Virus record (IMG/VR): IMGVR_UViG_3300042275_000805
DNA: 20,472 bases
Strand: one strand, 5' to 3'
Source: an uncultured virus (IMG/VR IMGVR_UViG_3300042275_000805)
Taxonomy: Duplodnaviria > Heunggongvirae > Uroviricota > Caudoviricetes
Below are positions 6,001 through 20,472 of this stretch, piece after piece. The notes beneath the pieces are model-generated. The model did no database searches. It worked only from the letters and a program-made list of their open reading frames with translations, and had not been told where the DNA came from. A program made the translations under genes and the position numbers. Every line of letters starts with the position of its first letter. Position 1 is the stretch's first letter.

Positions 6001-8750
6001 AGTACGGCTACGATGATCAAGGTCAGCAGACCAGTATCACCGATCCCAATGGCCACACGACGAACTTCACCTACGATCACCTTGGACGCCAACTCACCCG
6101 CACGTTACCGCTTGGCACACTCACCGGCGTTGAGTCCTCGCACTACGATGACCGCACGTTGGCAGACCTGATCGCTTCGGGAGACGACGTGACCACCTCC
6201 ACCGCTCTGGGCCAAACCGCCTACATGGTCGACTTCGAAGGCAACGTCACCGGCTATCTCTATGACAACTCCGCCCTCGGCTCCGGCCGCACCACACAGG
6301 TCACCTACTATGCCGCCGACGATCTGGCTGCCGCTGGCATCACCATCGCCGTCGGCATGACCCCCGCACAAATCCGTGCAGCTCTCGCCGTCATCACCGC
6401 CGCCCGCACCGTCAGTTACACGTATGACGATGAAGGCCGCATTATCGAAATCAACGACACTGCTCGTGGTTCCGGGGGCGGTATCATCACCAATACCTAC
6501 AACGACGAAGATCAACTCATCCGCATCGCATCACCCGAAGGCATTATCAACTACGCCTACGACGATCTTGGCCAGCTCACTCGCGCATGGACAGGCAATA
6601 CCCCCGGAAGCCATGACGGTGGCACGCCCACCACGGAGACAGTGTATACGTATGATGAACTTGGCCGCATGGCCACGGTGAGAGCAACCTACCGTGCTGG
6701 GATTATCACAACTGAGCCCGCCACCATTTATCACTACGATGCACTTGGCCGCATTGCAGCCATTGAACGTCCCAACAACGTGACAGCTCAGTACCTGTAT
6801 GACAGCATGAGCCATGTGACTGCGGTTTACAATTTTATCGACAGCAATACGAACCAGATGTATGATGCAGGCGGAGGCGATACGCTGGTGAGTGTCTTCG
6901 AATACACCCATGATGCCTATGGTAATCGTTTGGCTGCAACAGAGTCATTCGACACCGACAACGACGGCATGATCGCTGTGGCTCAGGGAGATACGGTGCA
7001 AACCTACACATGGCAATACGACGCATTGAACCGTCTGGTCTCCGAGTCGTTTGATAGTCAACTGGACGACACGCTGGATTACACGGATACCTTTACCTAC
7101 GATCTTGCGAGCAATCGTCAAACACTTGAACATGACGCTGGTAGTGATGGCATGACTTCTGCCGGTGATGAAACCACCAGTTACTTCTATGACGCCAATG
7201 ACCGGTTATTGGCAGAAATCAAAGACAATGCGACTTCCGAGGATGGTGATACCCAAGATACATATACAGAATATACCTACGAGAATACGCTGCAAACAGG
7301 TAAGACGGTTTACGAAGGTACGGACAATAGCGGGAATATTACCAGTAACACGAACTATCTCTATGACGCAACCGGGCGAATGATCGGCGTGGATACTGAT
7401 GGTGATCATATTGCTGATCAAATATATATCTACGACGTTAATGGTGTTCGCGTCAGTCAAACGGATGTCGCCACCGGCAAACATACGATCTATCTGATCG
7501 ATCCACAAAATCCCACTGGCTATGCTAAGCAGATTGAGGAACATATCATCGACGTAGGCGTGGATATGTTATCGCGTTCTTATACGTTGGGCCTGATGAT
7601 CCACGCACAAACGGATCATATCGCAGGTTTGGCAGGCGATGCTGGCACGACACTGTATTTCCTGCAAGACGCTGCCGGCCACACGCGAGCCTTGCTCAAT
7701 GCGATTGGTCAATATGCCCGCACCGCTGACGCAGATCAGGTTGCCCAAATTCTAAGCTACACAGCCTACGGCGACCTGCATAACATCACGCAATCCCAAG
7801 CCCTCACCAGTTGGCAGCGTGCTGACGGTATGTACGACCAGACTACCGGCTTAACCAACCACATCCTGCGATGGCGTGAGGGTGCAAGGTTCCTGTGTCT
7901 GGATTCGTACAGTGGGAATAATCTGTCGCCGCTTAGCCTGCATAAATATATCTATGGCAATGCCAATCCGATTATGGGTGTGGATCCGAGCGGTGAAATG
8001 GCATTTACTATTGGGGCACCTGTTTTGTTTGCGGTTACAGTTGGAATTGCATTGTATATAACTGCTCCTGCGGCTCATGGAATATTTACAGCAAAACCAA
8101 ATGTTGGCCCTAGAACCATTCCGATTGTTATTCATGTCAACACATTTGGCCAACCAAGTAAACGGCCAATGAATCTGTGGAAAATTCAGCAAATGATGAA
8201 AACATCTATTGAGCCATCATTAAATCCAGCTGGTTCTGTTGATAAAATTGCTCTTCAATTAAGAAGAGCATATGCACCACCTGTTACAGGCCTAGGGTGG
8301 ACAAATGTTGGAAACCCGTCACCATGGTGGTATATGATTGCTCCAACCGGATACTTTGGACGAGCTGTTGGTTCAAGATTTTCTTACCTACGTTCTCGGT
8401 GGGATGGTTATATGGAGTTTAACACAAAAGCGAGCGGGATTTTCGCAACAACTCACTCCTCTAGAAGTTGGTACAATCCTAGAGCATATACATCATATGA
8501 CGAAATTACAACTGTTTATGCAAAAACTGTAAGCTCTGCAACGACTTGGCACGGCTGGATGTATCCCAATATGCTTGCACATGAGCAAATTTATCTTGGT
8601 GCTTTTAATGGGACCGACAACAACCCTTTGTACGGATCTGGTTTTTCGTTAAATTCAGGGTCAGGCCTGTCGTATCAACTGAACCCAGTCCCTATACCAA
8701 TTAATGCGGCATGGATCAAACAATTCAGGAGTGATATTGGTGCTAAATAA
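3..8750 (+). CDS. Giant Rhs/YD-repeat polymorphic toxin with N-terminal cadherin-like (putative Ig/He_PIG) repeats; 5'-partial
   Basis: The frame is open from nt 3 (YTTQSFSLPV, matching the end of the internal repeats), so GTG at 30 is not the true start. Ten ~95-aa repeats (NxxPxIxSxP...YxYxxxAxDxDGDxLxY...IDxxTGxLTWTP...QxFxLxV) run to ~2855, then two more Ig-like units. YD repeats (YxYDxxGR) span ~3930-7900, the Rhs terminal motif NPIMGVDPSG ends at 7994, and an AT-richer C-terminal extension follows. Confidence 0.95.
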   Translation, partial: YTTQSFSLPVSEQSIENNTLPVITSDPTGPATVGRQYRYAVVASDANGQTLTYSLANGPEGAVLDPVTGVLTWTPVDHQAGTHSIVIEVSDGIDTVSQSFDLEAVVDSNNSAPDIDSLPTGPAVVGLPWQYAIQSSDIDGDEVTLTLTDAPGGALLDAQTGILSWTPDADGLYSFTVTAADGRGGLVSQSFDLLVNLPENAVNTAPVILTTPAGSAIAGELYTYSFAASDADGDPLTYSLDTTIVGMSIDAQTGVLTWTPDNSLIGTSQSVVIRVDDGRGGILTQSFDLDVVDNVPENNAAPVIMSTPSGSPMVGRLFRYQVTATDANGSTLSYALSDAPQGMQIDATSGLLTWTPSDNQLGEASVVLKVTDGTNTVSQSFTLTVLSDANNNLPTIGSTPYATAAVDRPYQYQVAAADSDGDVLRYGLVDAPTGMQINEATGLLTWTPTSVQEGEHTFAINVYDGRGGVTIQTVSLQVSVPKDNQVPVIDSQPRITTQIDTLYRYDISANDPDASGNEQLIYTLIQAPSGMSVDSSGALTWTPDSSQLGNHDVVLEVTDAQGASQSQSFTLTVTQEATNQPPVITSNPDVAAKVGNTYRYELTASDADHDTVVFLLENAPQGMSITQTVSGHAILTWQPDVDQLGQHSIEITAMDPYGLSTSQTFTLQVYGGNAAPLFSTIANTQAVVGQSYNYTVNAVDPDGDHVTYQLLAGPGNMSIDAESGVINFTPIASQEGTIDNITVAAIDELGAFSKQTFSLVVQAAPPNARPEITSSPTTFAIVGVPYEYQMQATDADDPTGQTLTYSLLSGPADASLDANTGLLTWTPSESTITQFSIAVFDPQGAGSVQNFSIQSRANNAPVINSTPIESVTSGALYRYSILATDPDGDAITVELVDGPAGMTLDQYNRLTWNGSDTAAFEPGTSYTVTVRVTDTFGSQAIQTFDLTVVADNQAPTAYVVPSTQTPALNQPLSIAIVVSDNVGIASRSISVNGTPLAVNDQGIATYTPTEIGSLLIEYSATDLSGNTTTDSLELFAYDPTDVSRPVVSIASPLDDATVTQVTDIVATVTDDNLVSYTLAYASLEDMVFTTIATGTENITDGILGQFDPTIIKNGTYVLRLTAVDAGGNVSTDDAFLEVDSNAKIGNFSLGFTDLSTSLGGLPITIGRTYDTLNADEVGDFGYGWNLDLFEMDIRTDVDFGESELSDIGIIPSLQHGTRLHVTLPDGTKQSFTMQVVPINSTAAAGLLAYTLSMYRVEFVPDADNTSTLTTTLPQLQVFMNEYGELETGAGMPFNPASPYLDIDYIMTTQDGTEFLLDGNTGELSTITDRQGNRLEVSDDGIRTVMPSGEIAAEISFTRDQLGRIKQITDTAGATINYTYDTKGDLVAVTDRVGSTTTFIYNPDEAAGREHYLTSIEDARGVSVMNLNFDETTGRIISLADASGAAIPFNYDLNPPQLPDGYTRETLADADDVPTEIIRDGRGNTVRQLQRLSDNGTVNDTTDDLWSVTVYEYDANDYRTRTSETFQATGDAAYTASPTTWLSEADYDPFGNVLSTTDSLGNTTYFTYDRYGSLLTTTDAQGNTTRNTYSDTGLLTHTTDALGNVTSYAYDSNGNMTAVTDSNGNVVSTFVYDSKNQLLSTTDINGNSRFFKYDDSGNQTHSWSYEDGYTTLSVTEYDAAQRVTASYSYTLTGEYTGSDSDRTAILTAIQSASPTSYSSSTYSETGQVQTTTDLFGNVSESMYDVRGNLVQSRSRAYMENGTPIWSVTRTFYDENGRSIASTSPFFTDDAGTLLADLNDTDELRVSYSIYDALGRVIETQYLKGVTIDIASDAEHDGLYVTSFTYPTTPDIQTSSQTVYDAAGRVYQSISSTGTITTYEYDTAGRQIRTTLDIAPGSGDPDDQQITEVEYDSLGRQTLTRDALGNETRYTYDALGRLVQTTYADGTTTSTEYDNLGRRISETDQLGRTTQYEYDDAGRTTAVVLPEVIDPLTGELTNPRYEYGYDDQGQQTSITDPNGHTTNFTYDHLGRQLTRTLPLGTLTGVESSHYDDRTLADLIASGDDVTTSTALGQTAYMVDFEGNVTGYLYDNSALGSGRTTQVTYYAADDLAAAGITIAVGMTPAQIRAALAVITAARTVSYTYDDEGRIIEINDTARGSGGGIITNTYNDEDQLIRIASPEGIINYAYDDLGQLTRAWTGNTPGSHDGGTPTTETVYTYDELGRMATVRATYRAGIITTEPATIYHYDALGRIAAIERPNNVTAQYLYDSMSHVTAVYNFIDSNTNQMYDAGGGDTLVSVFEYTHDAYGNRLAATESFDTDNDGMIAVAQGDTVQTYTWQYDALNRLVSESFDSQLDDTLDYTDTFTYDLASNRQTLEHDAGSDGMTSAGDETTSYFYDANDRLLAEIKDNATSEDGDTQDTYTEYTYENTLQTGKTVYEGTDNSGNITSNTNYLYDATGRMIGVDTDGDHIADQIYIYDVNGVRVSQTDVATGKHTIYLIDPQNPTGYAKQIEEHIIDVGVDMLSRSYTLGLMIHAQTDHIAGLAGDAGTTLYFLQDAAGHTRALLNAIGQYARTADADQVAQILSYTAYGDLHNITQSQALTSWQRADGMYDQTTGLTNHILRWREGARFLCLDSYSGNNLSPLSLHKYIYGNANPIMGVDPSGEMAFTIGAPVLFAVTVGIALYITAPAAHGIFTAKPNVGPRTIPIVIHVNTFGQPSKRPMNLWKIQQMMKTSIEPSLNPAGSVDKIALQLRRAYAPPVTGLGWTNVGNPSPWWYMIAPTGYFGRAVGSRFSYLRSRWDGYMEFNTKASGIFATTHSSRSWYNPRAYTSYDEITTVYAKTVSSATTWHGWMYPNMLAHEQIYLGAFNGTDNNPLYGSGFSLNSGSGLSYQLNPVPIPINAAWIKQFRSDIGAK
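51..2855 (+). repeat. Tandem array of ten cadherin-like/He_PIG protein repeats (~285 nt unit)
   Basis: Repeat starts NNTLPVI, NNSAPDI, VNTAPVI, NNAAPVI, NNNLPTI, DNQVPVI, TNQPPVI, GNAAPLF, PNARPEI, ANNAPVI; recurrent DxDGD and LTWTP motifs. Confidence 0.85.
7995..8750 (+). other. Variable C-terminal toxin domain of the Rhs protein (~251 aa)
   Basis: Directly follows DPSG; abrupt shift to AT-rich codons; begins with a hydrophobic segment (FTIGAPVLFAVTVGIALYI). Confidence 0.8.
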
Positions 8751-9372
8751 CTTGTTTGCTTTTAAAAAATATTTTTGTGTACCATTATTGTTTTGTGTAT
8801 TTACATTGTTAGTGTTTTTGGCAGTCAAGTGTTTATTTTTTTTAAACAATGACGGCAGCAGTGGCATTGCTAGATATTTAGATGCAGTTCAAAATGATGT
8901 GATATACGACGATAACCATGTGGTCGTTGGAATAAATTTCAATCATTTGGTTTTTTCGGATTTTTTGGTAAATGAGATTGTTCGTGAAAAATCAATACAT
9001 ACTATATATATGTATAAGTGTGTTGTTCGAGAGAAACAGTTTTTGAAACTTATTGGCTCTTTAAAAATACAGTATTTGTCAGTCCCCGGGTGCGCAATAG
9101 ATAATTCGTGCAGAAATCATCTGCTTCTCAGTAAAGATTTGGTTTTATTAAATGTGAGTGAGTCTGGATGTACAGGAGAAGATATTGTTAAGTTGTCGGA
9201 GATAAAAAGCCTAAAGTCGCTAATAGCCAATGGTATTTTAATATCGGATGTAGAACTGAAAACTATAGCTAATAAACGTTCAGATTTAAGCGTTCTTACG
9301 GATATAGGTTGCATTGAAAATGGAGAAATTACACTGTGGAAAGGGGAGGCAGAAAGGGGACATTCTAAATAA
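8740..9372 (+). CDS. Putative cognate immunity protein: N-terminal TM helix plus LRR-like repeats
   Basis: Overlaps the toxin stop. AGGAG at 8727-8731 precedes in-frame TTG 8737 and GTG 8740 (the ORF track start of 8704 is less likely). Very AT-rich. TM segment YFCVPLLFCVFTLLVFLAV; LxxLxLxx-like units (IQYLSVPGCAI, LVLLNVSESGCT, LKSLIANGILI). Confidence 0.7.
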   Translation: MLNNLFAFKKYFCVPLLFCVFTLLVFLAVKCLFFLNNDGSSGIARYLDAVQNDVIYDDNHVVVGINFNHLVFSDFLVNEIVREKSIHTIYMYKCVVREKQFLKLIGSLKIQYLSVPGCAIDNSCRNHLLLSKDLVLLNVSESGCTGEDIVKLSEIKSLKSLIANGILISDVELKTIANKRSDLSVLTDIGCIENGEITLWKGEAERGHSK

Positions 9373-9515: not shown

Positions 9516-11007
9516 TGTAGCGGCGCAGAAGATTATCACTCGATAATTGTTCGGATTTTGCCCGCTGACAAAACCTTTGACTCCTGATCATAGCACTGAA
9601 AACAGCAGATGGCGCGTACTGATCGCGCAAAATCGCATCGTTCTTTGGCAAGTGAATATAGGTTGTCATTTTGCATTCAAGCAGCCTGACGTGTCATTGT
9701 GATCTTGATCACCGGTAAATGTGCATCGTCTTTGAATCGGTTGCGTTGAATGCGGATGTGAGGATGGGAAGGCCAATCTGCTGCTCGGATTGGGATCGGC
9801 TCTTCGGGTTCAAAACCGTCCCACGCTTCATCGGGCGTTAAGCCATCAAGGGCATGGTGGTAACGTTTCTGGTTGTACCAAAGTTGGAAGCAATTCAATC
9901 TTATCTGCAAGTTCTGATGATTGGGCAGTAGCAATGTTGCTCGTTGCCAAATTCGTAGTGTTCGAAACAAGCGTTCGATCTTCCCGTTAAAATTTGGCAT
10001 GCGAACGGGGCCTCGAACATGTTTGATGCCCAACTCGTTCAAGCCATCTTTGAACTGCTTTTGAAATTCACCACCATGATCAGTGATCAATTGTCCAGGT
10101 GTTCCATAACGTGTTGCAGCCTTGCGAACCTGTCGAAGCAACTGCTGTGAATTGGGCCTTTTCCTGTAGACACGAAGACACAACAACCGTCGTGTCGCAC
10201 CGTCAAGGATGGCTGCAACGGTGTAGTGGCACCACAATATCTTCAAGCTCATTAAATCCATATGCCAGACATCATTGCGATTGTCGGGTGTCAGTAAGCC
10301 ATGTGGTTCAGCACCAACCGGCTGATTCATCGGCGGCCTACTTTTTCTGGCTTTTTTCGACGTTGGTGGTGGAGTTTCTCGCAGCATGCGTTGCACGGAT
10401 CGCCGACTGATCTGAATGCCAGCACGGATTAATTGCCGCGCGATAGTTCGTGTGCCCATCTCCGGTTCAGGACAAAGTCGCCGCATCTCATGTACTGCCC
10501 ACCGCACCGCATCATCAATCCGATTCCAACGAACCTTGGGAAACAATGCTCCTGACGAACCACCTTTCTCGGCCATTCGAATCCAATTGCGCACTGATTG
10601 CGGATGAAGCACAAATCGCTTGCAAACGATGGCAATACTCCAACCCCGCTGCCGCATCAATTGCACGATGGCCATGCGTTGCTCGGCTGAGTATTCAGGG
10701 CGTTTTCTGGAAATCAAGTTGGCTCGTTGCCCACGCAGGATTTCAAGCTCGCGTTTGAGCCACTCAACTTCGGTCAGTAACGCATCGCGTTCCACGATCA
10801 GATTCAGTGTCGAAGAGGCATTGTTTGCCAATCGACATCGTGCAAGCTGATAAGCCTGAGCAATGACGATGGTCACGGAATCTATGATTTTCAAGGTCGA
10901 CGCACAGGTGAACCAATGCATGGCAAACTTCCCTCCGGAATGTACCATGAATTGTATCGAATGGATGAGAGATTCTTAGTAGGCAGTGCGAAATTCACGG
11001 CCAAACA
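9516..11007 (-). mobile_element. IS-like element carrying an rve/DDE transposase; left end fairly clear, right end uncertain
   Basis: TGT terminus (TGTAGCGGCGCAGAA) at 9516, exactly where Rhs similarity ends. Only a weak partner end (TTCACGGCCAAACA, to 11007). No target duplication seen. Confidence 0.5.
9677..10921 (-). CDS. DDE-type integrase/transposase (rve integrase core, IS481/IS3-like) with N-terminal coiled coil and HTH
   Basis: Catalytic triad in WHMDLM, LITDHGGEF and NGKIERLFRT; WYNQKRYHHALDGLTPDE tail; HTH WSIAIVCKRFVLHPQSVRNWI. GGAGGG lies 9 nt before ATG 10921 (the track starts at 10948). Confidence 0.9.
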   Translation of the reverse strand: MHWFTCASTLKIIDSVTIVIAQAYQLARCRLANNASSTLNLIVERDALLTEVEWLKRELEILRGQRANLISRKRPEYSAEQRMAIVQLMRQRGWSIAIVCKRFVLHPQSVRNWIRMAEKGGSSGALFPKVRWNRIDDAVRWAVHEMRRLCPEPEMGTRTIARQLIRAGIQISRRSVQRMLRETPPPTSKKARKSRPPMNQPVGAEPHGLLTPDNRNDVWHMDLMSLKILWCHYTVAAILDGATRRLLCLRVYRKRPNSQQLLRQVRKAATRYGTPGQLITDHGGEFQKQFKDGLNELGIKHVRGPVRMPNFNGKIERLFRTLRIWQRATLLLPNHQNLQIRLNCFQLWYNQKRYHHALDGLTPDEAWDGFEPEEPIPIRAADWPSHPHIRIQRNRFKDDAHLPVIKITMTRQAA

Positions 11008-11084
11008 ATCGCTCCGGTTTTGACGTGATTGGGTTTTTATAAGTAAATCAATTTTTAATGAGTGTCTTCCGATTTTGCGCTTTA

Positions 11085-11882: not shown

Positions 11883-12551
11883 TCAATTCCATAAGGGATC
11901 AGGCAATCGATCTTCGGGGAAAGAATACCAAATGTGCCACTTGCTATCGGGAATCGGTAGAAAACCGACTTGCTTCCAGTGTTTGGCCAGTTTGGCATGA
12001 GCCTGTTCATATGAACATTGGAACTGATCATACTGCATCTTCTGGCTCCAATCGTCCTCCCATTCTCTGACTTGCGGATTCATCGGCGCTGGACAAGTAA
12101 CCGTCAAGCCATCGGCAATATGATGGGCCTTTAGGAATTTACGCATGGCTTGAAGACCAATGCCCTTGCCACGAAACTCCGGCAGGATTTCGACCGAGTG
12201 AATGTACAGCATATTCCGCATCAAGAAAGTATCTTTGACCCGTTCAGAAACCTTCAATTTAAATTCGTCCAGTTCGGGATCAAAGACCTCTTCATAAATC
12301 TCACATGCCTCTTGTGAATCGGCATCCAGCAAATCCCAAACTGATGTGCGGCCAGTGATGACGCTTTCCAACCAATACTGGATGGCTTTTATGCGTCCCA
12401 CCTGAATACGCTCCACAACCTCACCTGAGTCATCATATTGGACACGTTCAAGACTGCCTTCAATTTTGATGCGGTAGTCCAGCTCATCCGAGAACGATTG
12501 GACAGTCCGTGTGATCATTTCGTAATCGTAGTCATCATCTTGATTGTACAT
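11883..12551 (-). CDS. GNAT-fold (acetyltransferase-like) hypothetical protein
   Basis: Motif A-like LYIHSVEILPEFRGKGIG and a C-terminal HWKQVGF (YxxxGF-like); RBS AAGGGGG upstream. Confidence 0.7.
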   Translation of the reverse strand: MYNQDDDYDYEMITRTVQSFSDELDYRIKIEGSLERVQYDDSGEVVERIQVGRIKAIQYWLESVITGRTSVWDLLDADSQEACEIYEEVFDPELDEFKLKVSERVKDTFLMRNMLYIHSVEILPEFRGKGIGLQAMRKFLKAHHIADGLTVTCPAPMNPQVREWEDDWSQKMQYDQFQCSYEQAHAKLAKHWKQVGFLPIPDSKWHIWYSFPEDRLPDPLWN

Positions 12552-12595
12552 CAGTGAATTCCCCCTTGATTAATAGAACATGTAACTCAGGATTG

Positions 12596-12955
12596 TCATG
12601 ATACCTTCTTGACCAACCATCGCCACCAGACACGTGGCAGTCCTGCCCAACCGGCGCGGTTCATGGTGGCCATGCGGGATTTGCAACTGGTGCATGGACG
12701 CACCAAGCCGAAGGTGGTGACCTGAATGAACATGGAAAGCCATGTGCCGGGCGGCAGAATGCGACTGGACTTTGGTATTGGTAAGTCAGTCCACTTGCCC
12801 AATGGACACTTGGATGAAGGCAACTGAGTACGGGATTTCAGATCGACACCGTCAATGGCACAATTGCATTTGCGATCCGGATGGGACAGGCAGCTAACTG
12901 CGTGTTCGCATTGACGGCAGATGGATCGGCGCTTGTTGATGAAGTCGGTGGGCAT
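12596..12955 (-). CDS. Cys-rich phage protein (CxxC...CxC...CPLGKW plus PCxxC domain)
   Basis: RRSICRQCEH...KCNC...KCPLGKW and VRPCTSCKSRMATMN; RBS AAGGA upstream. Confidence 0.75.
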   Translation of the reverse strand: MPTDFINKRRSICRQCEHAVSCLSHPDRKCNCAIDGVDLKSRTQLPSSKCPLGKWTDLPIPKSSRILPPGTWLSMFIQVTTFGLVRPCTSCKSRMATMNRAGWAGLPRVWWRWLVKKVS

Positions 12956-12988
12956 GGTAATTCCTTGAATGATGAGTGAACGTGAGGC

Positions 12989-13756
12989 TTAAATTCCGGG
13001 GCTTCCGGGGGTGCAACTGCCATCACCGTTGGAATCGCCGACGAAGCAATTGCCTTGTTCGTCCATACAACTCGTTTCATCGAGAACTTCGATTTGCAGT
13101 TGGACGCGAGCGGGGTTGTCGTAAATATTCCAGATGTTGGTGCAGATGCTGTGATTGTGCAGTTCGTCACTGAGGATCGATGCGCTGCGGCAACTTCCGG
13201 GGGCTGACGGGATGCAGGCGGCGAAGATGCGGCCGCAGGTGTCATCTGAATCTTCGTTGGCATAACCGTCGACTGTGACGTACCAACGCGTGGTGCCATC
13301 GCCATCGCAACCTGCGAGCACCATGGCGTTGACATAACTGCTACAAGTCGCCCCCGGAAGTTCGATGCCGTATCCCTGCCAGCGCGGGCCGGTGATGGTG
13401 TCGCTTTCGCAGTTGGGTTGAGGGTGACCACCGATCATGCCGGAGTGACCGCAGCCCGGACAGTATGGTGGATTCCATGCACCGCAACTAAATGGAATCT
13501 CAATGGTGTTACCCATGAAGGCAGGATCGGTGCAGCAGCAACGTTCGTGGGTATTGCCATAATCAATCAATTGCCATGTGATTCGGATGCGTGATTGATT
13601 GGTGAAGCAGCACGGGCCACAGGCACACGCGTTGGCCAACACGGGTTCCTGGCCGCAGCATTTGCCGCAGATCATAAAGAGCCCATCTTCCGTTAAACCC
13701 AATTCGCCTGAGCCAGATTTGAGCGGGTCGAGATCAAATTCGCCATCACTCCCCAT
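12989..13756 (-). CDS. Cys-rich putative tail-tip/receptor-binding protein (255 aa, ~23 Cys)
   Basis: ATG 13756 has GGAGG 9 nt upstream and overlaps the previous stop (the track start of 13885 is too long). CC and CCC clusters. Occupies the distal position of the tail operon. Confidence 0.7.
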   Translation of the reverse strand: MGSDGEFDLDPLKSGSGELGLTEDGLFMICGKCCGQEPVLANACACGPCCFTNQSRIRITWQLIDYGNTHERCCCTDPAFMGNTIEIPFSCGAWNPPYCPGCGHSGMIGGHPQPNCESDTITGPRWQGYGIELPGATCSSYVNAMVLAGCDGDGTTRWYVTVDGYANEDSDDTCGRIFAACIPSAPGSCRSASILSDELHNHSICTNIWNIYDNPARVQLQIEVLDETSCMDEQGNCFVGDSNGDGSCTPGSPGI

Positions 13757-14654
13757 CGTCACATACCTCCACAGCCAAAGTCTCATTGGCGTCATACAGA
13801 ATGAATTCACGTGACCCGTCATAGGGATTGGTGACGTAATAACCGGTGCCGATGATGCCATCGCCGGTTGCTGGCGCAGTAACAAGTTTGCCTGCTGCGG
13901 GCCGTTGCTTGAGGGGCGTCATTTCTTCACCGAGAATCGTGCCATCTTCTTCTTCGTCGTAGGCATCGATGGTTTTGACAAAGTAGGTGCGATCACATTG
14001 CGTGGTGGCATCGCCATCGGTGATGCCACCATCCTGCCAGACTTTGCAGGGAATGAGTGTCGTGGTATCCACCAGGCTGGGGACACCGAGTTTGACGATA
14101 GCCCAACACGGTTCACCGATGGAAACTTCGGGTTGACTCCAGAGAATCTGTGTACTGCCGGTGGCTGACGATGTCATGATCGCCGGGAAGCCCACGGGCG
14201 CTTTGGCAAATTGATGAGTTTCATCGGTGATGATGATGCGAACCTGACACACACCTTGGATCATCGCCCGACCAACCTGACCGGCACGGATCGGTTCAAG
14301 CAGAATGGCATGTTTGTCCATGGCCACATGTGTATCAAGCTCGGGGAACACACCGCTGAAGACGATCTGATCGACAAAGCTTCCTTCCAGATCCATGATC
14401 GTCTGCGGCTCGTGAACCGAGTCCTCGATGCCGAGGATGAAGTAACGCCAACAATCCATCGGCGAATCATTCTTCACCCAAATGACACCACCTTGCCCCC
14501 GGCCCCCGGACGCGTTTGCCGACTGCATGGATTGCTCAAGTTTCTGGCGCGGTTTGATGCGTTGCTGAAAATCCGTCGCCGCATCGATGAACGCGTTGTA
14601 TGTGTTGGCCGGGATCACCAGAGGATCGCCGGTACTGACTTTTTTCAATGTCAT
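13746..14654 (-). CDS. Phage minor tail/tail-tip protein (302 aa)
   Basis: GGAGG RBS; second gene after the tape measure; N-terminus KKVxxGDPLxIPAxTYNAFIDAA resembles planctomycete prophage tail proteins (recall, not searched). Confidence 0.7.
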   Translation of the reverse strand: MTLKKVSTGDPLVIPANTYNAFIDAATDFQQRIKPRQKLEQSMQSANASGGRGQGGVIWVKNDSPMDCWRYFILGIEDSVHEPQTIMDLEGSFVDQIVFSGVFPELDTHVAMDKHAILLEPIRAGQVGRAMIQGVCQVRIIITDETHQFAKAPVGFPAIMTSSATGSTQILWSQPEVSIGEPCWAIVKLGVPSLVDTTTLIPCKVWQDGGITDGDATTQCDRTYFVKTIDAYDEEEDGTILGEEMTPLKQRPAAGKLVTAPATGDGIIGTGYYVTNPYDGSREFILYDANETLAVEVCDDGE

Positions 14655-14666
14655 GCTAAACCTCCA

Positions 14667-15533
14667 TCAAGAACCAATGTCCAGCAAACCAAAGTCGGCA
14701 TCTTCATAGACTTGTTCGACGTAGGCTGCGACCGGGCGTTTGACCATGGCCATCGCATCCATGTCCTCGACGTCGGCGTAACGTACCCAGAGGTACTCCC
14801 AACCCTTCTTGGCAATGCCACTGATGCTGCCGATGGTGATGCCGGTTTTGTTGGGCGATGCGGCGAACCTGAAAGTGATCTCCCAATCACCTGTCGTCTC
14901 TGTGTCAGTCTCAGTACCGTGCAATGTGCCGGATGCACCAAGGAACAAACACTCACCCGCAGCCAACCCACGGAACCCCCCGGAATTGACCTTGCCAGTG
15001 AGTTGGAACAGCGTGCCCTTGTATTCCGGCGTGACTTGTTCAACCGTCAGGTAATGGGTTTCGCTGAAGTTGTAGATGGGAACCGTGATGTCCACGCCCT
15101 GGACTTCGGCATTGCCATTGGTGTTGGACACGCCGATCGCACCATGGAAGTCAGGCGCAGATGGAATCGATGAATCGGCATACGAACCCACGGTGTTCAA
15201 CGACTGGGTGATATGCTGTGTGCCACCCATGGTGTCAAAGCTGTACGTATACTCGCCACTACCAGGCTCAGGCCCCCCGCCCCCGGAAGTTGAAGACGAT
15301 GAAGAAGCTTCGGCGTAACGCACGGATGCATCCCAATACTCTTCGCTGATCGGCTCGATCTGTACGGATTGCATAGGCAGACCGTCGTAGGTTTCAGGTG
15401 CAAAACTCTCGACAGCAGACTTGATCGCAAGATCGTCATCGCTGCCACTGGCAATGTAAGTCAGCGTCACCTGGGCATTGCTACCCGTGGTGCTTTGCCG
15501 ACTGTCATATTTTTCTGCAACGGTGATGGGCAT
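14667..15533 (-). CDS. Phage tail protein immediately after the tape measure (distal tail/hub-like, 288 aa)
   Basis: Synteny; beta-rich, acidic composition; KKGWEYLWVRY motif. Confidence 0.75.
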   Translation of the reverse strand: MPITVAEKYDSRQSTTGSNAQVTLTYIASGSDDDLAIKSAVESFAPETYDGLPMQSVQIEPISEEYWDASVRYAEASSSSSTSGGGGPEPGSGEYTYSFDTMGGTQHITQSLNTVGSYADSSIPSAPDFHGAIGVSNTNGNAEVQGVDITVPIYNFSETHYLTVEQVTPEYKGTLFQLTGKVNSGGFRGLAAGECLFLGASGTLHGTETDTETTGDWEITFRFAASPNKTGITIGSISGIAKKGWEYLWVRYADVEDMDAMAMVKRPVAAYVEQVYEDADFGLLDIGS

Positions 15534-15556: not shown

Positions 15557-17926
15557 TTAAGCAAATGAGAGCGACGATGATCCACCGCCACCGTTCTGCA
15601 CTTCGTTGTAGAGTTTCTTGACGTAACGCGCGGTGTCTTCACTGGCAGCAGCAGTACGTTGAGCAATCGACTGATTCGTCATGAGTCCCTGTAAGGCTGC
15701 GGAATTGAACGTGCCGCGTGATTGCTGATTGGGACTCAGCGAACCGATCTGCCCACCGAGTTCGGCGAGTTTCTTCTTGAGGGTGTCGATCAAGTTGTCA
15801 GGTGTCGAAGGTGAATCACCAGATTGATTTGCTTCCGGGGGTTTGTTCTTGGCAGCCTGCTGTAATAAATGTTGGTATTCAGCACGGGTCTTTTCCAGAT
15901 CGTTCAACGCAGTGGCCATCTGTTTTTCGTACTGGGTTTGACGACTCTTGTTACCTGCTTTCTGTTCTTGATCGATGAGATTCTGTTGGGTTTGGCGTTC
16001 GTGGTCGATGCGTGCCAGGTCTGAATCGTATTGTTGTTTGTTTTCAGCCAACGCCGCATCACGTTGCCTGGTGATATTGGCTTTATCAGCGTTGGCATTG
16101 GTGCGGGCAATGTTGATCGCCATGTCGACGTTGTAGTCTTTGTCGAACAGGCCGATCAGATGATGCATCCCTTCCTCGACCTTGAGTTGGGCAGATCGGA
16201 ACGTGGACTGCAAACCCGCTGTCATCGTTGTCCAGGCGTCGGAGAGGAATGTTGTGGTTTGAACCCACAGGATGCGCAGGCCGTGCCAGGCATCGACGAG
16301 CACCTTGGTCACCTTATAGAAGGTTTGGCTGGCCACATTGACGATGGTGTACTTGAAGCTGTACCACAGGGATTCAACTTGATAGATGCCGCGTTGCCAT
16401 TCGACTTTGAGTGCCTGCCAGAGAACCTTGGCAGCAAGACTCAGATCACCAGAAGCCAACGCATCGCGGATGCCATGCCAGGCCACCAACGCACGATCCT
16501 TCAGATCATTGAATCGATCACTGAGCCAGTTGAGTGTCTTGGATGCAATATCCGTCATGCTCAATATGGCAATGCCAATGCCTGCCGCAGCGACGATCAC
16601 CAAGCCCATGGGTGAGAGCAATGCACCCAGTACCGTGAGTAGCGTGCCAATCACACCCACGCTGCCGGTGATAATGCCCGACAAGCCACCGAAGATAAAC
16701 GCCACCGCCTGAGCCGCGACGCCGGTGGTCATCAGGATCACACCCACGGCAGAGATTCCGGCAATCACCAACGCAGCGGAGCGCACCAGAGACTGGTTCT
16801 TGCTGAGCAGATCAATCACCACGCCTGCATATCTGGACACAATGGCTGCTGCTTTTGCCACGGGTTCACTCAGAGCTTCGCCCATGATGCCCAGTACAAT
16901 GATGCCTGCTTGCTTGATACGGTTAAAGGCGTGCGTCAAGGTTTTGCTGAGTTTGGCATAGGCTTTGTCAGCCAAGCCCGCGCGACTTTGCATCGCATCC
17001 AGGTCAGACTCAAAACCCTTGAGGTTGTTCAGAGCCGGGACGATACCACGCAGGGCAGCCGAGTCGGGGAACAACTTAGCCAACACATCGGGCGGTAGTT
17101 TGGCGAGTTTTTCCATGACGCCATGCAAGCCCTCGGTCTTGAGCGTCGTGGTATTCATCTCAAAGCCAAGTTGTTTGGCCAGGGCTGTGGCCTCGCTACT
17201 TGGCTTGAGAAAGCTGCGCAGAATACCATTGACCGAATCGATGGCCGTGGTGGTGCGCAGGCCATTGCGTGTGAGTGTGGCGATCATCGCGCCCAGTTCA
17301 TCCAGTGGTAATCCCGCGCTGGCAGCCGTCGAAGCCACCATGCCGATCTGGGGTGCCAGTTCAGCAAACGTCGTTTTGCCACGTTGCACAATACCGAACA
17401 ACCAGTCTGAGACATCACCAGCTTGTTCAGCAGCCAGGCCATAACTGTTCAGCACCGTGGTAATGGCGTCGGCTGCGGTGCGTGTATCCGTCAAACCCGC
17501 CTTGGCAGACTTGGCGGCAACACCCAACACATCCAGCGCTTTAGCTGGAGCAATCGAAGCTGACAGGATGTCATACAAACCACCGGACAAGGCTTCGGTG
17601 GATTCGCCAAATCTCACCGCCATTTTGCGGATGCCCTTGGTGAAGCTGTCCATATACTTCTCGGCATCAGAGTCTGAGAGCATGGTGGCGACGGTGGCCA
17701 TCTGCTGCTGAAAATCCGCATAGATTTTCAGGCCCGAAAGCAGAGGCACCGCCGCCACCGCCGACACGGCAGTCAGTCGCTTACCGATCTCGCCCACAGA
17801 TTTACCGAAGGCTTTAACGCGCTTCTGGGCCTTGTCGAGTCCACGCACCAGCTTGCTGTCCTGTGTGGTCAGTTCAATGTACGCAGCCCCGGCACGAATG
17901 TTCCGACTGTTGGCGATACCAGCCAT
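15557..17926 (-). CDS. Phage tail tape measure protein (TP901-like core)
   Basis: 789 aa, Ala/Leu-rich helical. N-terminal AGAAYIEL; TMP core (GLYDILSA, GKTTFAELA); central hydrophobic Gly-rich segment; periodic Trp residues; GGGAG RBS. Confidence 0.93.
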   Translation of the reverse strand: MAGIANSRNIRAGAAYIELTTQDSKLVRGLDKAQKRVKAFGKSVGEIGKRLTAVSAVAAVPLLSGLKIYADFQQQMATVATMLSDSDAEKYMDSFTKGIRKMAVRFGESTEALSGGLYDILSASIAPAKALDVLGVAAKSAKAGLTDTRTAADAITTVLNSYGLAAEQAGDVSDWLFGIVQRGKTTFAELAPQIGMVASTAASAGLPLDELGAMIATLTRNGLRTTTAIDSVNGILRSFLKPSSEATALAKQLGFEMNTTTLKTEGLHGVMEKLAKLPPDVLAKLFPDSAALRGIVPALNNLKGFESDLDAMQSRAGLADKAYAKLSKTLTHAFNRIKQAGIIVLGIMGEALSEPVAKAAAIVSRYAGVVIDLLSKNQSLVRSAALVIAGISAVGVILMTTGVAAQAVAFIFGGLSGIITGSVGVIGTLLTVLGALLSPMGLVIVAAAGIGIAILSMTDIASKTLNWLSDRFNDLKDRALVAWHGIRDALASGDLSLAAKVLWQALKVEWQRGIYQVESLWYSFKYTIVNVASQTFYKVTKVLVDAWHGLRILWVQTTTFLSDAWTTMTAGLQSTFRSAQLKVEEGMHHLIGLFDKDYNVDMAINIARTNANADKANITRQRDAALAENKQQYDSDLARIDHERQTQQNLIDQEQKAGNKSRQTQYEKQMATALNDLEKTRAEYQHLLQQAAKNKPPEANQSGDSPSTPDNLIDTLKKKLAELGGQIGSLSPNQQSRGTFNSAALQGLMTNQSIAQRTAAASEDTARYVKKLYNEVQNGGGGSSSLSFA

Positions 17927-17950
17927 TGCGACTCCCGTTTACAAGGCAAT

Positions 17951-18056
17951 TAACCACAGATAAACACAGATGAACACAGATAAGAATTAAGCCACGAATC
18001 ACAGCAACACATCAAAAAAACATCTGCGTTTATCTGTGTGATTTCCGGGGGTGTGG
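17951..18056. repeat. Intergenic palindromic decamer repeat element (REP-like)
   Basis: Left arm TAACCACAGA-TAAACACAGA-TGAACACAGA-T (17951-17981); inverted arm ATCTGCGTTT-ATCTGTGTG (18022-18040), then AT...TGTGG. Confidence 0.8.
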
Positions 18057-18067
18057 CAAAAATGTCT

Positions 18068-18541
18068 TTATACGGTGGCTACCGTCGCCCCGGAAGACGT
18101 ACTCGTGGTCTTGCGGCCTTCGTCCAGGCCCTTGTTGAAGGAGGCTTCCTTTTCTTTGCGGAGTTTACCCGAGCCAAGGAATAAACCGAGTAGTCCGGAT
18201 GCAGCAGGCAGCATGGGGCCAAGGACGGGAACGCCTGCAACGGTGGGACCGATTTCATCGAGAGCCGACAGCGACAACTGGTTGACCATGTTGCGGATTT
18301 CATTGGCATGTTCGATGTTGGATTTCCACTGGCTGCCAGCGGTTTGCATGTGCTGATACCAGAGTTGGTATTCGCTCTCGGCTTCGTTGAGGGAGATGGT
18401 GCTGGCTAATCCGGTTTGCTGCTGGATCGTGTTGGGCGTTTTGACGTGGATCATGTCGCCCATGTCGCAGCCCGCAAAACTCAGCAGGCCCAGGACGAGG
18501 AAGACGATGACGAACAGGAAGATCAAGTGGTTGGTTTTCAT
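18068..18541 (-). CDS. Prophage lipoprotein with a C-terminal hydrophobic segment (157 aa)
   Basis: Signal peptide plus lipobox SFAG-C; hydrophobic VAGVPVLGPMLPAASGLLGLFLG followed by a basic tail; ATGA overlap with the upstream gene. Confidence 0.8.
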   Translation of the reverse strand: MKTNHLIFLFVIVFLVLGLLSFAGCDMGDMIHVKTPNTIQQQTGLASTISLNEAESEYQLWYQHMQTAGSQWKSNIEHANEIRNMVNQLSLSALDEIGPTVAGVPVLGPMLPAASGLLGLFLGSGKLRKEKEASFNKGLDEGRKTTSTSSGATVATV

Positions 18542-18825
18542 TGTGGGTTTTTCCTTGAGGGGATGAATGTTTTCTTGAGCAAGGCCATGGCATCGTCGGT
18601 GTCCAAGGGGATCACCTGTGATGTCTGGCTTTGGGCAAACGGATCAAAGTCCGAAGCTTTGAACGTGTGGGAACGATTGAAGGTCAGCAGGTTGGCAAGC
18701 AAGGCCATCAAGTTGGATGTATGCTGCCAATCCTGTTTCTGGCGGGACTGGGCCATCTCGTACAACTCCCGTAAGGTAAAACTTCCGGGGTGGACGCCGA
18801 GGACACCTGCCAGTTGCCAGATCAT
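18538..18825 (-). CDS. Tail assembly chaperone, T part (gpT-like; probably also expressed as a GT fusion)
   Basis: LGVHPGSFTLRELYEM motif typical of T segments; lies in the -1 frame relative to the upstream G gene; ATGA overlap. Confidence 0.75.
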   Translation of the reverse strand: MIWQLAGVLGVHPGSFTLRELYEMAQSRQKQDWQHTSNLMALLANLLTFNRSHTFKASDFDPFAQSQTSQVIPLDTDDAMALLKKTFIPSRKNPQ

Positions 18826-19274
18826 GTCTTGGCAGGTTGCAGCAGGTGTTCGAGTTGCTGCTGCAACTCCGGGCTGTCCAGTTGCTGGCTGGCGATTTCC
18901 AGGGCTTTTTCCTCGACCTGGCGAAGCTTTGCCAGTGCCTTCTTGAGCACTTGCCGCTTCGCTGCGGGGAAAAAATCCGCCAACTCCTGAAGCAATGCTG
19001 TGGTGGCATGATCGATCACGTCACCTGCCAATGCTTGGCCGAACTGTTCATCGGTGATGTTGGCGCTCTCGGCTTGCTGCTGGCAAATGGCAAAGAGCAC
19101 ATCACAGAGCAGGATCGGATCGGTGGAGAGTTTTTCCAGCAGATGGGATTTACTGTCCAACACATCCAGTAGATTGACATTGCATAATGCCTGAACACGC
19201 TTGATGGTGGCGACCGTGATCTGCACAGTCCAGACATTGTTGCCGTTACTTCCGGGGGCAGTGAAGGTATGCAT
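18822..19274 (-). CDS. Tail assembly chaperone, G part (gpG-like, 150 aa)
   Basis: Follows the major tail gene with a TAATG overlap; helical; contains ELADFFP with a slippery heptamer. Confidence 0.8.
   Translation of the reverse strand: MHTFTAPGSNGNNVWTVQITVATIKRVQALCNVNLLDVLDSKSHLLEKLSTDPILLCDVLFAICQQQAESANITDEQFGQALAGDVIDHATTALLQELADFFPAAKRQVLKKALAKLRQVEEKALEIASQQLDSPELQQQLEHLLQPAKT
18969..18975 (-). promoter_or_regulatory. Candidate -1 programmed ribosomal frameshift site T-TTT-TTC
   Basis: X-XXY-YYZ heptamer in the correct phase (GAT TTT TTC); the -1 frame is open for 48 codons into the T ORF. Confidence 0.65.
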
Positions 19275-19498
19275 TAGCTGCCACCTCCATCCACCCAGGT
19301 CGGAGCACGAGTGACATAGGTTGGCTTGACTGTCACGTTGACCGTGATGGCTTCTTCGAGCGGTTCGTTGCGAGTAAAATTGGTGACCGAGAAGTCAGCG
19401 TCGAGACCGCTGCCACCTTCGCCATCGAGCACGGCCATGGCAATGGGTGTGTTGTTGAAGTAGGCGTTCTTGATGGCGGTGAATCCTGCGTCTTCCGT
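19274..19498 (-). CDS. Phage major tail (tube) protein, 3' exon (74 aa); 5' exon lies beyond the window
   Basis: TEDAGFTAIKNAYFNNTPIAMAVLDG...DFSVTNFTRNEPLEEAITVNVTVKP is tail-tube-like, begins exactly at the intron 3' end and precedes the chaperones. The N-terminal part of the track ORF 19274-19675 is intron sequence. Confidence 0.8.
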   Translation of the reverse strand, partial: TEDAGFTAIKNAYFNNTPIAMAVLDGEGGSGLDADFSVTNFTRNEPLEEAITVNVTVKPTYVTRAPTWVDGGGS

Positions 19499-19571
19499 GT
19501 GGTGTAGGCCAAGGAGTTGCACCCTGACCCCAACCCCAAACCGGGCGTGCAAGTTTCCAAGCACCCGGCTT
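19499..19571 (-). ncRNA. Group II intron ribozyme domains V (19538-19571) and VI (19501-19537)
   Basis: DV is the 34-nt AAGCCGGGTGCTTGGAAACTTGCACGCCCGGTTT with AGC triad, GAAA loop and AC bulge. The DVI stem pairs GGGGTCAGGG with CCTTGGCCT. Confidence 0.9.
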
Positions 19572-19589
19572 TCCCGATATTTCTTGACT

Positions 19590-20471
19590 TTATTTCGCAT
19601 AGGTCTTTTCCTTGTGACAAAACAGACACAGGGTCTGCATGTTTTCCAGATAACTTGCCTGTGCAAAGCTGGCAAAGCTTTGGACGGGTTTGATATGATC
19701 GGCCTGTGAGGTTGCTGCTGTGATGGGCTTGCCGCATTGGCTGCATTTCAAACCGTCACGTGCCAGGGCCTGATGCTTCAGGTCCATGCCACCGGTTCTG
19801 TTCTTTTCGTGGATGTAGCGTTCGCCGTCCACGTCAGAATCAGACTCGTAGTCGCCGTTGCCCGGCACATAAGGTTCGGGGCCACCTTGGTCCCATGCCA
19901 TGCGTATATCGCGGAATTTCGCGAGTGTGCATGTTGAGAACATCCCAATGTAGCTTCCGAATGTGTACCCGCGAAGGCACTTGGCAGTGGATATGTCCTG
20001 CTTGCGACATATCGCTTTGACGGCTATCCAGTAGGCGTGATGGTCCAACAAGGACGACACGACTGAATAGTTATGGGCGATCTTGTAATAATGAGCCCAT
20101 CCCCGTACAACTGCCGAGCCCCGGATCATGCGGACGGCAATCGACTCTTGTTGGGGTCGATGCCGAATCGCTTTCGCCAGGCTTCGCTTGGCATTGGCCA
20201 CTGCTTCCAGCGGAACCTTGATCTTCGCAGCGTGGTGGCCACGTCTGACAACACCCATTTCCAAGCGGAAACTGAGAAATTCAAAACCCTCGCGGACATG
20301 CGTGATGTGCGTCTTCTCCTCCGAAAGTCGCAGGCCGCAGTTGACGGCAAGGAACCCACGGATTGCCTCACGGAGATTCTCGGCATAACGCTTTGAAGCC
20401 CGCGTGATGAACACACACCAATCATCGGCATAGCGGACGAACCGAAGGTTCGGCTCCCGGTTATACCATGC
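19590..20471 (-). CDS. ltrA: Group II intron reverse transcriptase/maturase with C-terminal HNH endonuclease; 5'-partial
   Basis: The frame is open to the window edge. VRYADDW (YADD at 20421-20432); GLRLSEEKT and GFEFL (RT6/7); VVRGWAHYY (domain X); CSQC...DHIKP...NMQTLCLFCH (HNH). Confidence 0.93.
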   Translation of the reverse strand, partial: AWYNREPNLRFVRYADDWCVFITRASKRYAENLREAIRGFLAVNCGLRLSEEKTHITHVREGFEFLSFRLEMGVVRRGHHAAKIKVPLEAVANAKRSLAKAIRHRPQQESIAVRMIRGSAVVRGWAHYYKIAHNYSVVSSLLDHHAYWIAVKAICRKQDISTAKCLRGYTFGSYIGMFSTCTLAKFRDIRMAWDQGGPEPYVPGNGDYESDSDVDGERYIHEKNRTGGMDLKHQALARDGLKCSQCGKPITAATSQADHIKPVQSFASFAQASYLENMQTLCLFCHKEKTYAK

Positions 20472-20472
20472 T

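Follow-up and report, generated by a model that had tools for sequence, protein, structure and literature searches.

The window analysed here is a 20,472-nucleotide (nt) stretch of DNA from an uncultured virus of the Caudoviricetes (IMG/VR record IMGVR_UViG_3300042275_000805), and it very probably ends inside a mobile group II intron that splits the major tail (tube) gene of a prophage. All features of this gene lie on the minus strand, with the intron entering from the end of the window. Four features, containing an open reading frame (ORF) within the intron and the adjoining part of the tail gene, define the locus (aa, amino acids):

19499..20472, minus strand: group II intron, 3' portion, corresponding to nt 1509-2482 of the 2482-nt intron of relatives and cut by the window end
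19590..20471, minus strand: intron-encoded protein, C-terminal 293 aa, open at the window end, stop codon TAA at 19590-19592
19573..19499, minus strand: ribozyme domains V and VI (Rfam RF00029), with the 3' splice site right after 19499
19274..19498, minus strand: 3' exon of the tail (tube) gene, codons 69-142 plus stop codon TAA at 19276-19274

A group II intron inside a tail-tube gene

The intron portion inside the window measures 974 nt, and its RNA terminates in ...CCUACACCAC, position 19499 being the final base. The sole Rfam match anywhere in the window falls at this end: RF00029 is matched over the full model (1-77) with 50.4 bits (gathering score 40; E 2e-07), and the matched segment shows the AGC triad of domain V and the bulged branch-point A of domain VI. 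The protein ORF precedes domain V, as in retroelement-form group II introns. Specifically, the 293-aa product contains the end of RVT_1 with the YADD motif (28.6 bits, just below the cut-off of 29.6, the domain being cut by the window), together with GIIM (25.6 bits; cut-off 23) and HNH (29.9 bits; cut-off 21.4). The intron is of the retroelement form, its protein combining reverse transcriptase (RT), maturase and HNH endonuclease.

From 19498 downwards, the sequence continues with ACG GAA GAC (TED...) for 74 codons. A search for longer proteins with this 74-aa exon (E <= 0.01) returned 366 relatives among 413 candidates, 120 of which were listed. PF06199 (phage tail tube) is present in 117 of these 120, and the best listed homologs have 142 aa and share 92-97% identity with the whole 74-residue exon. 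Taken alone, the 74-aa exon matched no Pfam or PHROG family and found no match by tblastn among GenBank phages; the full-length relative from an intron-less prophage copy used for comparison (locus L007) matches PF06199 with 30.1 bits (cut-off 23.8) as well as PHROG major tail protein families. Uninterrupted homologs read ...VEFTLIWD-TEDAGFTAIKNAYFNN... (the hyphen marks the insertion point here and below), which places the junction at ...IWD-TEDAGF.

The insertion point can be read independently from DNA. In a comparison set with uninterrupted tube genes, comprising 80 genome loci and 26 viral loci, homology to the window ends at 19497-19500, the boundary of codons 68 and 69, and window positions 19500-20472 are unmatched in all 80 genome loci. 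This break coincides with the intron's 3' end as defined by Rfam. The intron sits between tube-gene codons 68 and 69, in phase 0.

An earlier sequence-only reading of this DNA had proposed a sense-oriented group II intron in the major tail gene of a prophage, ending at 19499 and followed in phase 0 by ACG GAA GAC. The ribozyme domains, the RT-X-HNH protein and the close tube homologs bear out the former claim; the RF00029 end and the homology break agree on the latter.

Full-length copies in related prophages

The 5' part of the intron can be followed in relatives of the window. A complete 7.4-Mb Planctomycetota chromosome (record CP087563.1; G002 below) was one of five genomes reached through tail-tube loci, and the only one with intron copies. 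A tube-protein search of G002 gave 14 matches that resolve into eight uninterrupted genes and three split pairs, so that three of its eleven tube genes are occupied. The three intron copies share the same phase-0 site, are each 2482 nt long and stand in frame: a 68-codon 5' exon (...EFTLMWD or ...EFTMAWD) is followed by GTGCGAC...CCTACACCAC and then by T(E/D)D.... A fourth full-length copy, L106, lies at the end of a 30.6-kb IMG/VR viral contig. Here, syntenic head-tail genes precede an intact 68-codon 5' exon (...EFTMAWD), GTGCGAC follows at once, and the complete 2482-nt intron runs on until the contig stops 6 bases into the 3' exon. L106 and the window thus mirror each other, an arrangement suggesting that this multi-copy intron is a place where assemblies break.

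The intron in the window is 96% identical to the three G002 copies across 974 of 974 nt, and 99.8% identical to L106 (2 mismatches in 980). L106 and the three G002 copies all carry a 5' boundary of the GUGYG type (GTGCGAC); the window's own boundary lies beyond its end. In the relatives, the intron protein is 555 aa long, starts with an ATG at intron nt 724 and contains RVT_1 (120.9 bits), GIIM and HNH.

The sequence-only reading had looked to the upstream side for a GTGCG 5' end and a 5' exon joining in frame at ...WD-TEDAGF, and it had named a missing 5' tail exon, an out-of-frame junction or a 5'-truncated intron as the findings that would overturn it. None of these was found in the relatives, where the 5' exon is present and intact, GTGCGAC adjoins it, the junction is in frame and the intron has its full 2482 nt. 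The predicted join is seen in uninterrupted homologs, and the four full-length intron-bearing relatives give WD-T(E/D)D. Intron-less alleles, which it had also suggested looking for, exist as the eight uninterrupted genes of G002 and as the 142-aa homologs.

Metagenomes add a further view of the same arrangement. Sixteen public wastewater-metagenome runs contain 32-80% of the words sampled from window positions 17000-20472; no RNA run is among the 24 public sequencing runs listed. For four wastewater-metagenome runs, contigs were aligned at 85% likeness to a G002 copy (L084:6500-12000). In all four, a 1825-nt contig starts 2 nt inside the 3' exon and reaches intron nt 660, and a 653-nt contig covers the remaining intron and ends exactly at intron base 1. 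Depth over the 5' and 3' parts of the intron is alike (59 versus 68 in run X1, 86 versus 94 in X4). Several joints in these runs leave the intron out, in one case over exactly 2482 nt, a hint that intron-less alleles co-occur with the intron, given that joints at 85% likeness may come from several organisms. As metagenome contigs aligned at this likeness, these data are supportive only.

These copies bear directly on the question whether the window holds a mere fragment, that is, a 5'-truncated intron or an orphan 3' exon in a dead gene of a decaying prophage. Some points are in its favour: the 5' side lies beyond the window end, an insertion sequence (IS) element sits at the other end of the prophage, and the available part of the review by Zimmerly and Semper (2015, PMC4424553) describes most bacterial intron copies as truncated or inactivated. 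It is nevertheless highly improbable here, as the twin L106 spans the whole intron and keeps its 5' exon intact, all four metagenome runs show similar 5' and 3' depth and a 5' contig ending at intron base 1, the window retains intact tail genes downstream, and an assembly break in a multi-copy intron is the simplest reason for where the window ends. The window's own copy is in all likelihood complete, its 5' half being inferred from the 99.8% identical twin.

Exon recognition and intron class

Group II introns find their exons by base pairing between exon-binding sites (EBS) in the intron and intron-binding sites (IBS) in the exon, and these pairings were sought in an alignment of 14 related introns from varied exon contexts. 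The EBS1 region could be aligned in 12 of them; EBS1 and delta pairings were read by hand from the alignment, with G-U pairs allowed. EBS1 is a hairpin loop at about nt 355-361 whose partner is the final 6-8 bases of the 5' exon belonging to the same intron. Eleven of the 12 aligned introns, from six or more different exon contexts, show contiguous EBS1-IBS1 pairing of 6-8 pairs, the sole exception being L111, for which no EBS1 pairing was found. L106 has seven Watson-Crick pairs (AUCCCAG/CUGGGAU); other examples are GAUGUC/GAUAUU in L100, UACCUUGG/CUGAGGUA in L099 and GUUGUA/UACAAC in introns that occupy a methylase gene. Delta, the base lying just 5' of EBS1, forms a pair with the base that opens the 3' exon in 10 of the 12, switching between U-A and C-G; L106 has the U-A pair, and L115, with C opposite A, is one of the two exceptions. 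EBS1 and delta thereby covary with the exons across relatives.

For EBS2, located in a loop at about nt 272-278, 13 introns were tested for at least five contiguous pairs ending at exon positions -6 to -14. Pairing with IBS2 was found in 7 of the 13, with seven pairs in L100 and L114 and five in L084, a G002 locus. An RNAalifold consensus of the first 720 nt of ten relatives' introns (the window's own copy excluded) puts both EBS1 and EBS2 in hairpin loops and resolves domains I, II and III together with the beginning of domain IV; compensatory changes are seen at 98 of its 191 pairs.

Exon recognition looks IIA-like, given the delta pairing seen in 10 of the 12 aligned introns. In class IIA, according to the available part of PMC4424553, the 3' exon is recognised through pairing of delta' with the base beside EBS1 (delta) and not through a separate EBS3. 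The protein does not separate the classes: against PDB sequences it scores about 170 bits alike for LtrA/IIA, IIB and IIC RTs.

Prospects for splicing and a model

Several observations weigh against a complete intron that splices. Intron nt 1-1508 and the 5' exon of the window's own copy lie beyond its end, the 31-mer across the window junction is absent from the viral, metagenome and genome contigs, and L106, being 2 bases off in 980, is a twin and a different molecule. The main weakness concerns EBS2: L106 and L086, which are the variants nearest to the window, showed no pairing with IBS2 at the canonical place. In L086, a further G002 locus, delta is also exceptional, with A opposite A, and the Rfam D1-D4 models gave no match on the full intron at E <= 0.01. 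Finally, the host carries many related prophages, tube protein could come from these in trans, and selection for splicing would then be relaxed. The EBS/IBS check that the sequence-only reading had proposed came out divided in the relatives, with EBS1 (11 of 12) and delta (10 of 12) in its favour and EBS2 lacking in L106 and L086.

These points lend some weight to an intron that is complete and splices poorly or not at all, leaving the tube gene knocked out and the prophage defective or dependent on co-resident intron-less prophages. Besides the missing canonical EBS2-IBS2 pairing, the eight intron-less tube genes that G002 holds next to its three occupied ones would fit such a state, as would the intron-skipping metagenome joints, with their suggestion of co-occurring intron-less alleles. 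Much of the sequence speaks otherwise. Domains V and VI are intact and identical across copies (1 base differs between the window and L084), and the protein frame has stayed open with mostly silent change: in the ORF part, the window and L084 differ at 34 nt, which amounts to 12 aa changes and 21 silently changed codons. L106 retains its seven Watson-Crick EBS1 pairs and its U-A pair at delta, the insertion is exact and in phase 0, the neighbouring structural genes are all intact, and the recent mobility described below needs excised, folded RNA. A non-splicing intron is accordingly unlikely, and the reading of a mobile intron that splits the tube gene and probably splices out of its transcript is preferred.

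Under this preferred reading, the late operon would first be transcribed through the intron. The intron protein, made from the precursor, would then aid the ribozyme in excising itself as a lariat, and the exons would join at ...WD-TED..., restoring both a 142-aa tube protein and the translational coupling to the next gene. In turn, the RNA-protein particle would locate empty tube alleles through EBS1, delta and, in some copies, EBS2, reverse-splice into such an allele and be copied into DNA by target-primed reverse transcription.

If splicing were rate-limiting and regulated, the intron would be a true gate on tail assembly and virion yield. The tube protein is needed in many copies per virion, and by analogy only, how efficiently Ll.LtrB splices is known to control relaxase level and conjugation of the element that hosts it (PMC1874635, in the part available). 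Such a gate is decidedly unlikely, however: no sign of regulation is seen in the sequence, and the intron is young compared with its hosts and present in only 3 of 11 G002 copies, which fits a selfish insertion and not a built-in switch.

Recent spread and other intron sites

The introns are far more alike than the prophages that carry them, at 96-100% identity compared with only 81-89% in the flanking prophage DNA, which indicates that the intron is much younger than the divergence of the prophages and has moved between them. Judged from these identities, the spread is most probably recent retrohoming.

One pair of G002 loci may preserve the trace of such a movement. Between L084 and L085, a tract of perfect identity begins at position -288 relative to the 5' splice site, takes in the intron (where 2482 nt show 1 difference) and ends 2 nt into the 3' exon; beyond this point the two are about 85% alike, and the prophages are otherwise about 83% identical. 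That the tract boundary and the 3' splice site fall together speaks for an event driven by the intron, in which only the 5' flank was co-converted, and the tract may represent asymmetric 5' co-conversion of about 290 nt of donor flank during intron movement. A mosaic boundary may also have fallen there by chance. Asymmetric 5' co-conversion is the pattern of yeast mitochondrial introns; to our knowledge it has not been reported for bacterial retrohoming, including that of Ll.LtrB, and a search of the literature on exon co-conversion in group II retrohoming found no relevant passage. If the tract did arise in this way, intron mobility would also shuffle tail-tube alleles between prophages.

Relatives of the intron occupy further sites. 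An IMG/VR search with the intron protein gave ten loci, and related introns, with proteins 57-64% identical, are found elsewhere in the tube gene and outside it. Tube codons 41/42 are the insertion point in L100 (genome G319) and L114 (a viral contig), and codons 33/34 in L113, likewise in phase 0 and in frame. Five of the ten viral loci (L108, L109, L110, L112 and L115) have the DPPY motif of a DNA methylase occupied, with the intron directly after the motif (...DPPYN-VKVEPRSNN...); in L115, the 3' exon is unrelated. For L102, the 5' splice site was looked for and not found. Among 401 sampled genomes of the phylum, seven match the intron DNA (E <= 0.001), long matches being confined to G002, G319 and G399. 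A domain V 32-mer was found at five loci in metagenome contigs, none of them in a tail-tube gene.

With five occupied alleles at one site and two further sites in the same gene, the tail-tube gene appears to be a regular homing site. The suggestion in the sequence-only reading that the phage serves as a vehicle for the intron fits these data, as the lineage occurs on IMG/VR viral contigs and has spread among diverged prophages. A more far-reaching picture can be put forward only tentatively: a phage-specialised, IIA-like HNH lineage with its regular homes in two conserved genes of a single Planctomycetota prophage family, namely in the tube gene at three independent phase-0 sites (33/34, 41/42 and 68/69) and at the methylase DPPY motif, for which the diverged prophages of one chromosome would act as a reservoir of empty sites.

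Other observations concern the same genes. The G002 prophage family carries a ParB-methylase gene of the type that bears introns elsewhere. At locus L013, the tube copy (G002:C1:3069671-3070069) aligns over residues 1-133 only, within a 305-aa open frame, and other sequence either replaces its C-terminus or is joined to it. Two chimeric proteins end in a tube C-terminus: P0054 (659 aa), a large serine recombinase frame running into the last ~75 residues of a tail-tube homolog, and P0019 (171 aa), a second chimera. Other mobile elements seem to insert in the tube gene near the intron site. The P0054 recombinase was considered as the integrase of the G002 prophage family and rejected; at 23% identity over 151 aa it belongs to a different element.

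The host prophage and the neighbourhood in the window

Downstream of the tube exon, the window continues with the tail module of the prophage:

18822..19274, minus strand: next gene, 150 aa, its ATG overlapping the tube stop codon as TAATG, at the position expected for a tail assembly chaperone
18068..18825, minus strand: two small ORFs of 95 aa and 157 aa in the interval from tube to tape-measure gene
15557..17926, minus strand: tape-measure protein, 789 aa, matching PF10145 (101.4 bits) and PHROG tape-measure families (best E 1.8e-50)
11883..15533, minus strand: distal tail genes of 288, 302, 298, 119 and 222 aa, full length compared with a related prophage

The 150-aa ORF matched no family and is 97% identical at the protein level to the syntenic ORF of L007. 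The coupling of the tube exon to a chaperone gene, as claimed by the sequence-only reading, stands in so far as the TAATG overlap and the expected position are concerned, while the identity of the gene as a chaperone found no family match to back it. The 157-aa ORF (18068-18541, minus strand), in a position expected for a tail chaperone, carries a lipoprotein-like signal, MKTNHLIFLFVIVFLVLGLLSFAGC, at its N-terminus; it, too, gave no family match. In the gap between this ORF and the tape-measure gene (17951-18039), three direct CACAGAT(A/G)A repeats with 10-nt spacing are found, with an 18-nt inverted copy 48 nt away, and homology to several relatives is interrupted between 17920 and 18105; the repeats may constitute a putative regulatory or protein-binding site.

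When the distal tail ORFs were compared by tblastn with the L007 proteins, four proved 86-96% identical over their full length; the 119-aa ORF is 73% identical over residues 31-118, with a single stop symbol in the alignment. Overall, the structural genes beside the intron are full length in the window, in G002 and in L106, and show 73-97% protein identity to the intron-less copy. DNA homology to L007 extends to window position 11013.

Just past this end of homology lies the IS element (9677-10948, minus strand), with a 423-aa DDE (rve) transposase. Further along, a 5'-open ORF of 2915 aa at 3-8750 (plus strand) contains 10 He_PIG and 8 Big_9 Ig-like stretches and 5 RHS repeats and resembles a surface protein of the Rhs type, akin to polymorphic toxins. 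The 222-aa ORF that overlaps it (8704-9372, plus strand) has no family match and could be its immunity partner.

The element that hosts the intron is a real prophage family, lambda-like, with a serine integrase and common in Planctomycetota. In G002, its members are about 32 kb each. They encode a large serine recombinase, a PDDEXK nuclease, an AAA_24 ATPase, a helicase, a primase-polymerase and a ParB-methylase, together with a large terminase, a lambda-type portal, a protease-capsid fusion, cement, head-tail joining, tube, tape-measure and distal tail proteins. The tube gene keeps its place in this order, with the tape-measure gene downstream in the window and terminase, portal, capsid, cement and head-tail joining genes upstream in relatives. 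A domesticated cluster resembling a gene transfer agent (GTA) was considered and rejected, given the serine recombinase, replication, terminase, portal and capsid genes over ~32 kb and the many IMG/VR relatives. The number of members within one G002 chromosome, with 11 diverged prophage copies (81-89% DNA identity in the parts compared), makes this an unusually large family; its loci are L002-L008, L013, L084-L086, L196 and L197.

Comparison with known systems

The finding joins a recently expanded record of introns in phages. The sequence-only reading held that phage structural genes typically carry group I and not group II introns, a view that is dated by the work of Merk, Jones and Eddy (NAR 2025, PMC12350094). 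As far as the accessible text of that paper goes, it reports group II introns from the genomes of phages, 20 of them in curated genomes, and matches in 9,229 IMG/VR contigs; its Table S1 lists one in a gene for a 'minor tail protein' of Clostridium phage c-st and one in the large terminase gene of Listeria phage LPJP1, and the accessible main text does not contain the word 'tail'. The window intron resembles these cases in that conserved phage genes are interrupted and in that the introns are recognised by RF00029, intron-less homologs and EBS/IBS pairings. Unlike the structural-gene cases in the accessible material, which are ORF-less IIB introns of ~0.7 kb, it measures 2.5 kb, encodes an RT-X-HNH protein and shows IIA-like recognition, and it lies in the major tail (tube) gene of Planctomycetota prophages. 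A search of the literature, restricted to text and covering the IMG/VR match table (Table S2) of Merk et al. by keyword alone, turned up no group II intron with its own protein inside a major tail or tube gene, nor any from Planctomycetota; a case may yet sit in the figures or in that table.

The window thereby contributes a clean example of a group II intron that encodes a protein and lies in the prophage tail gene needed in greatest abundance. G002, with 11 diverged copies of the target gene of which 3 are occupied, amounts to a natural 'experiment' that could show the cost of the intron to the phage, whether EBS variants track target alleles and whether flanking exons are co-converted. There is also a practical side: because of such introns, tail-tube genes are missed or called too short by gene callers, and metagenome assemblies break, as at the window end.

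Group I introns in phage capsid and tail genes have long been known, for instance in cluster J mycobacteriophages (PMC3706429, in the part available); orf142 of Twort is another gene with a group I intron. They share with the intron described here self-splicing, a location in late structural genes and the existence of intron-plus and intron-minus relatives; in contrast, they belong to another ribozyme class, move by a DNA homing endonuclease and not by retrohoming, and are much smaller.

Another parallel is Ll.LtrB, an IIA intron that occupies the relaxase gene of conjugative elements in Lactococcus lactis. According to the available parts of PMC1874635 and PMC4424553, it has the full retroelement form with a protein that includes an En domain, and its exon recognition relies on EBS1, EBS2 and delta-delta' (PMC4424553). 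Both introns interrupt a gene that is needed for the transfer of their mobile host, so that the spread of the host depends on splicing. They differ in that the host is a prophage here and not a plasmid or an integrative and conjugative element (ICE), and in that the intron proteins are distant, at ~170 bits to LtrA.

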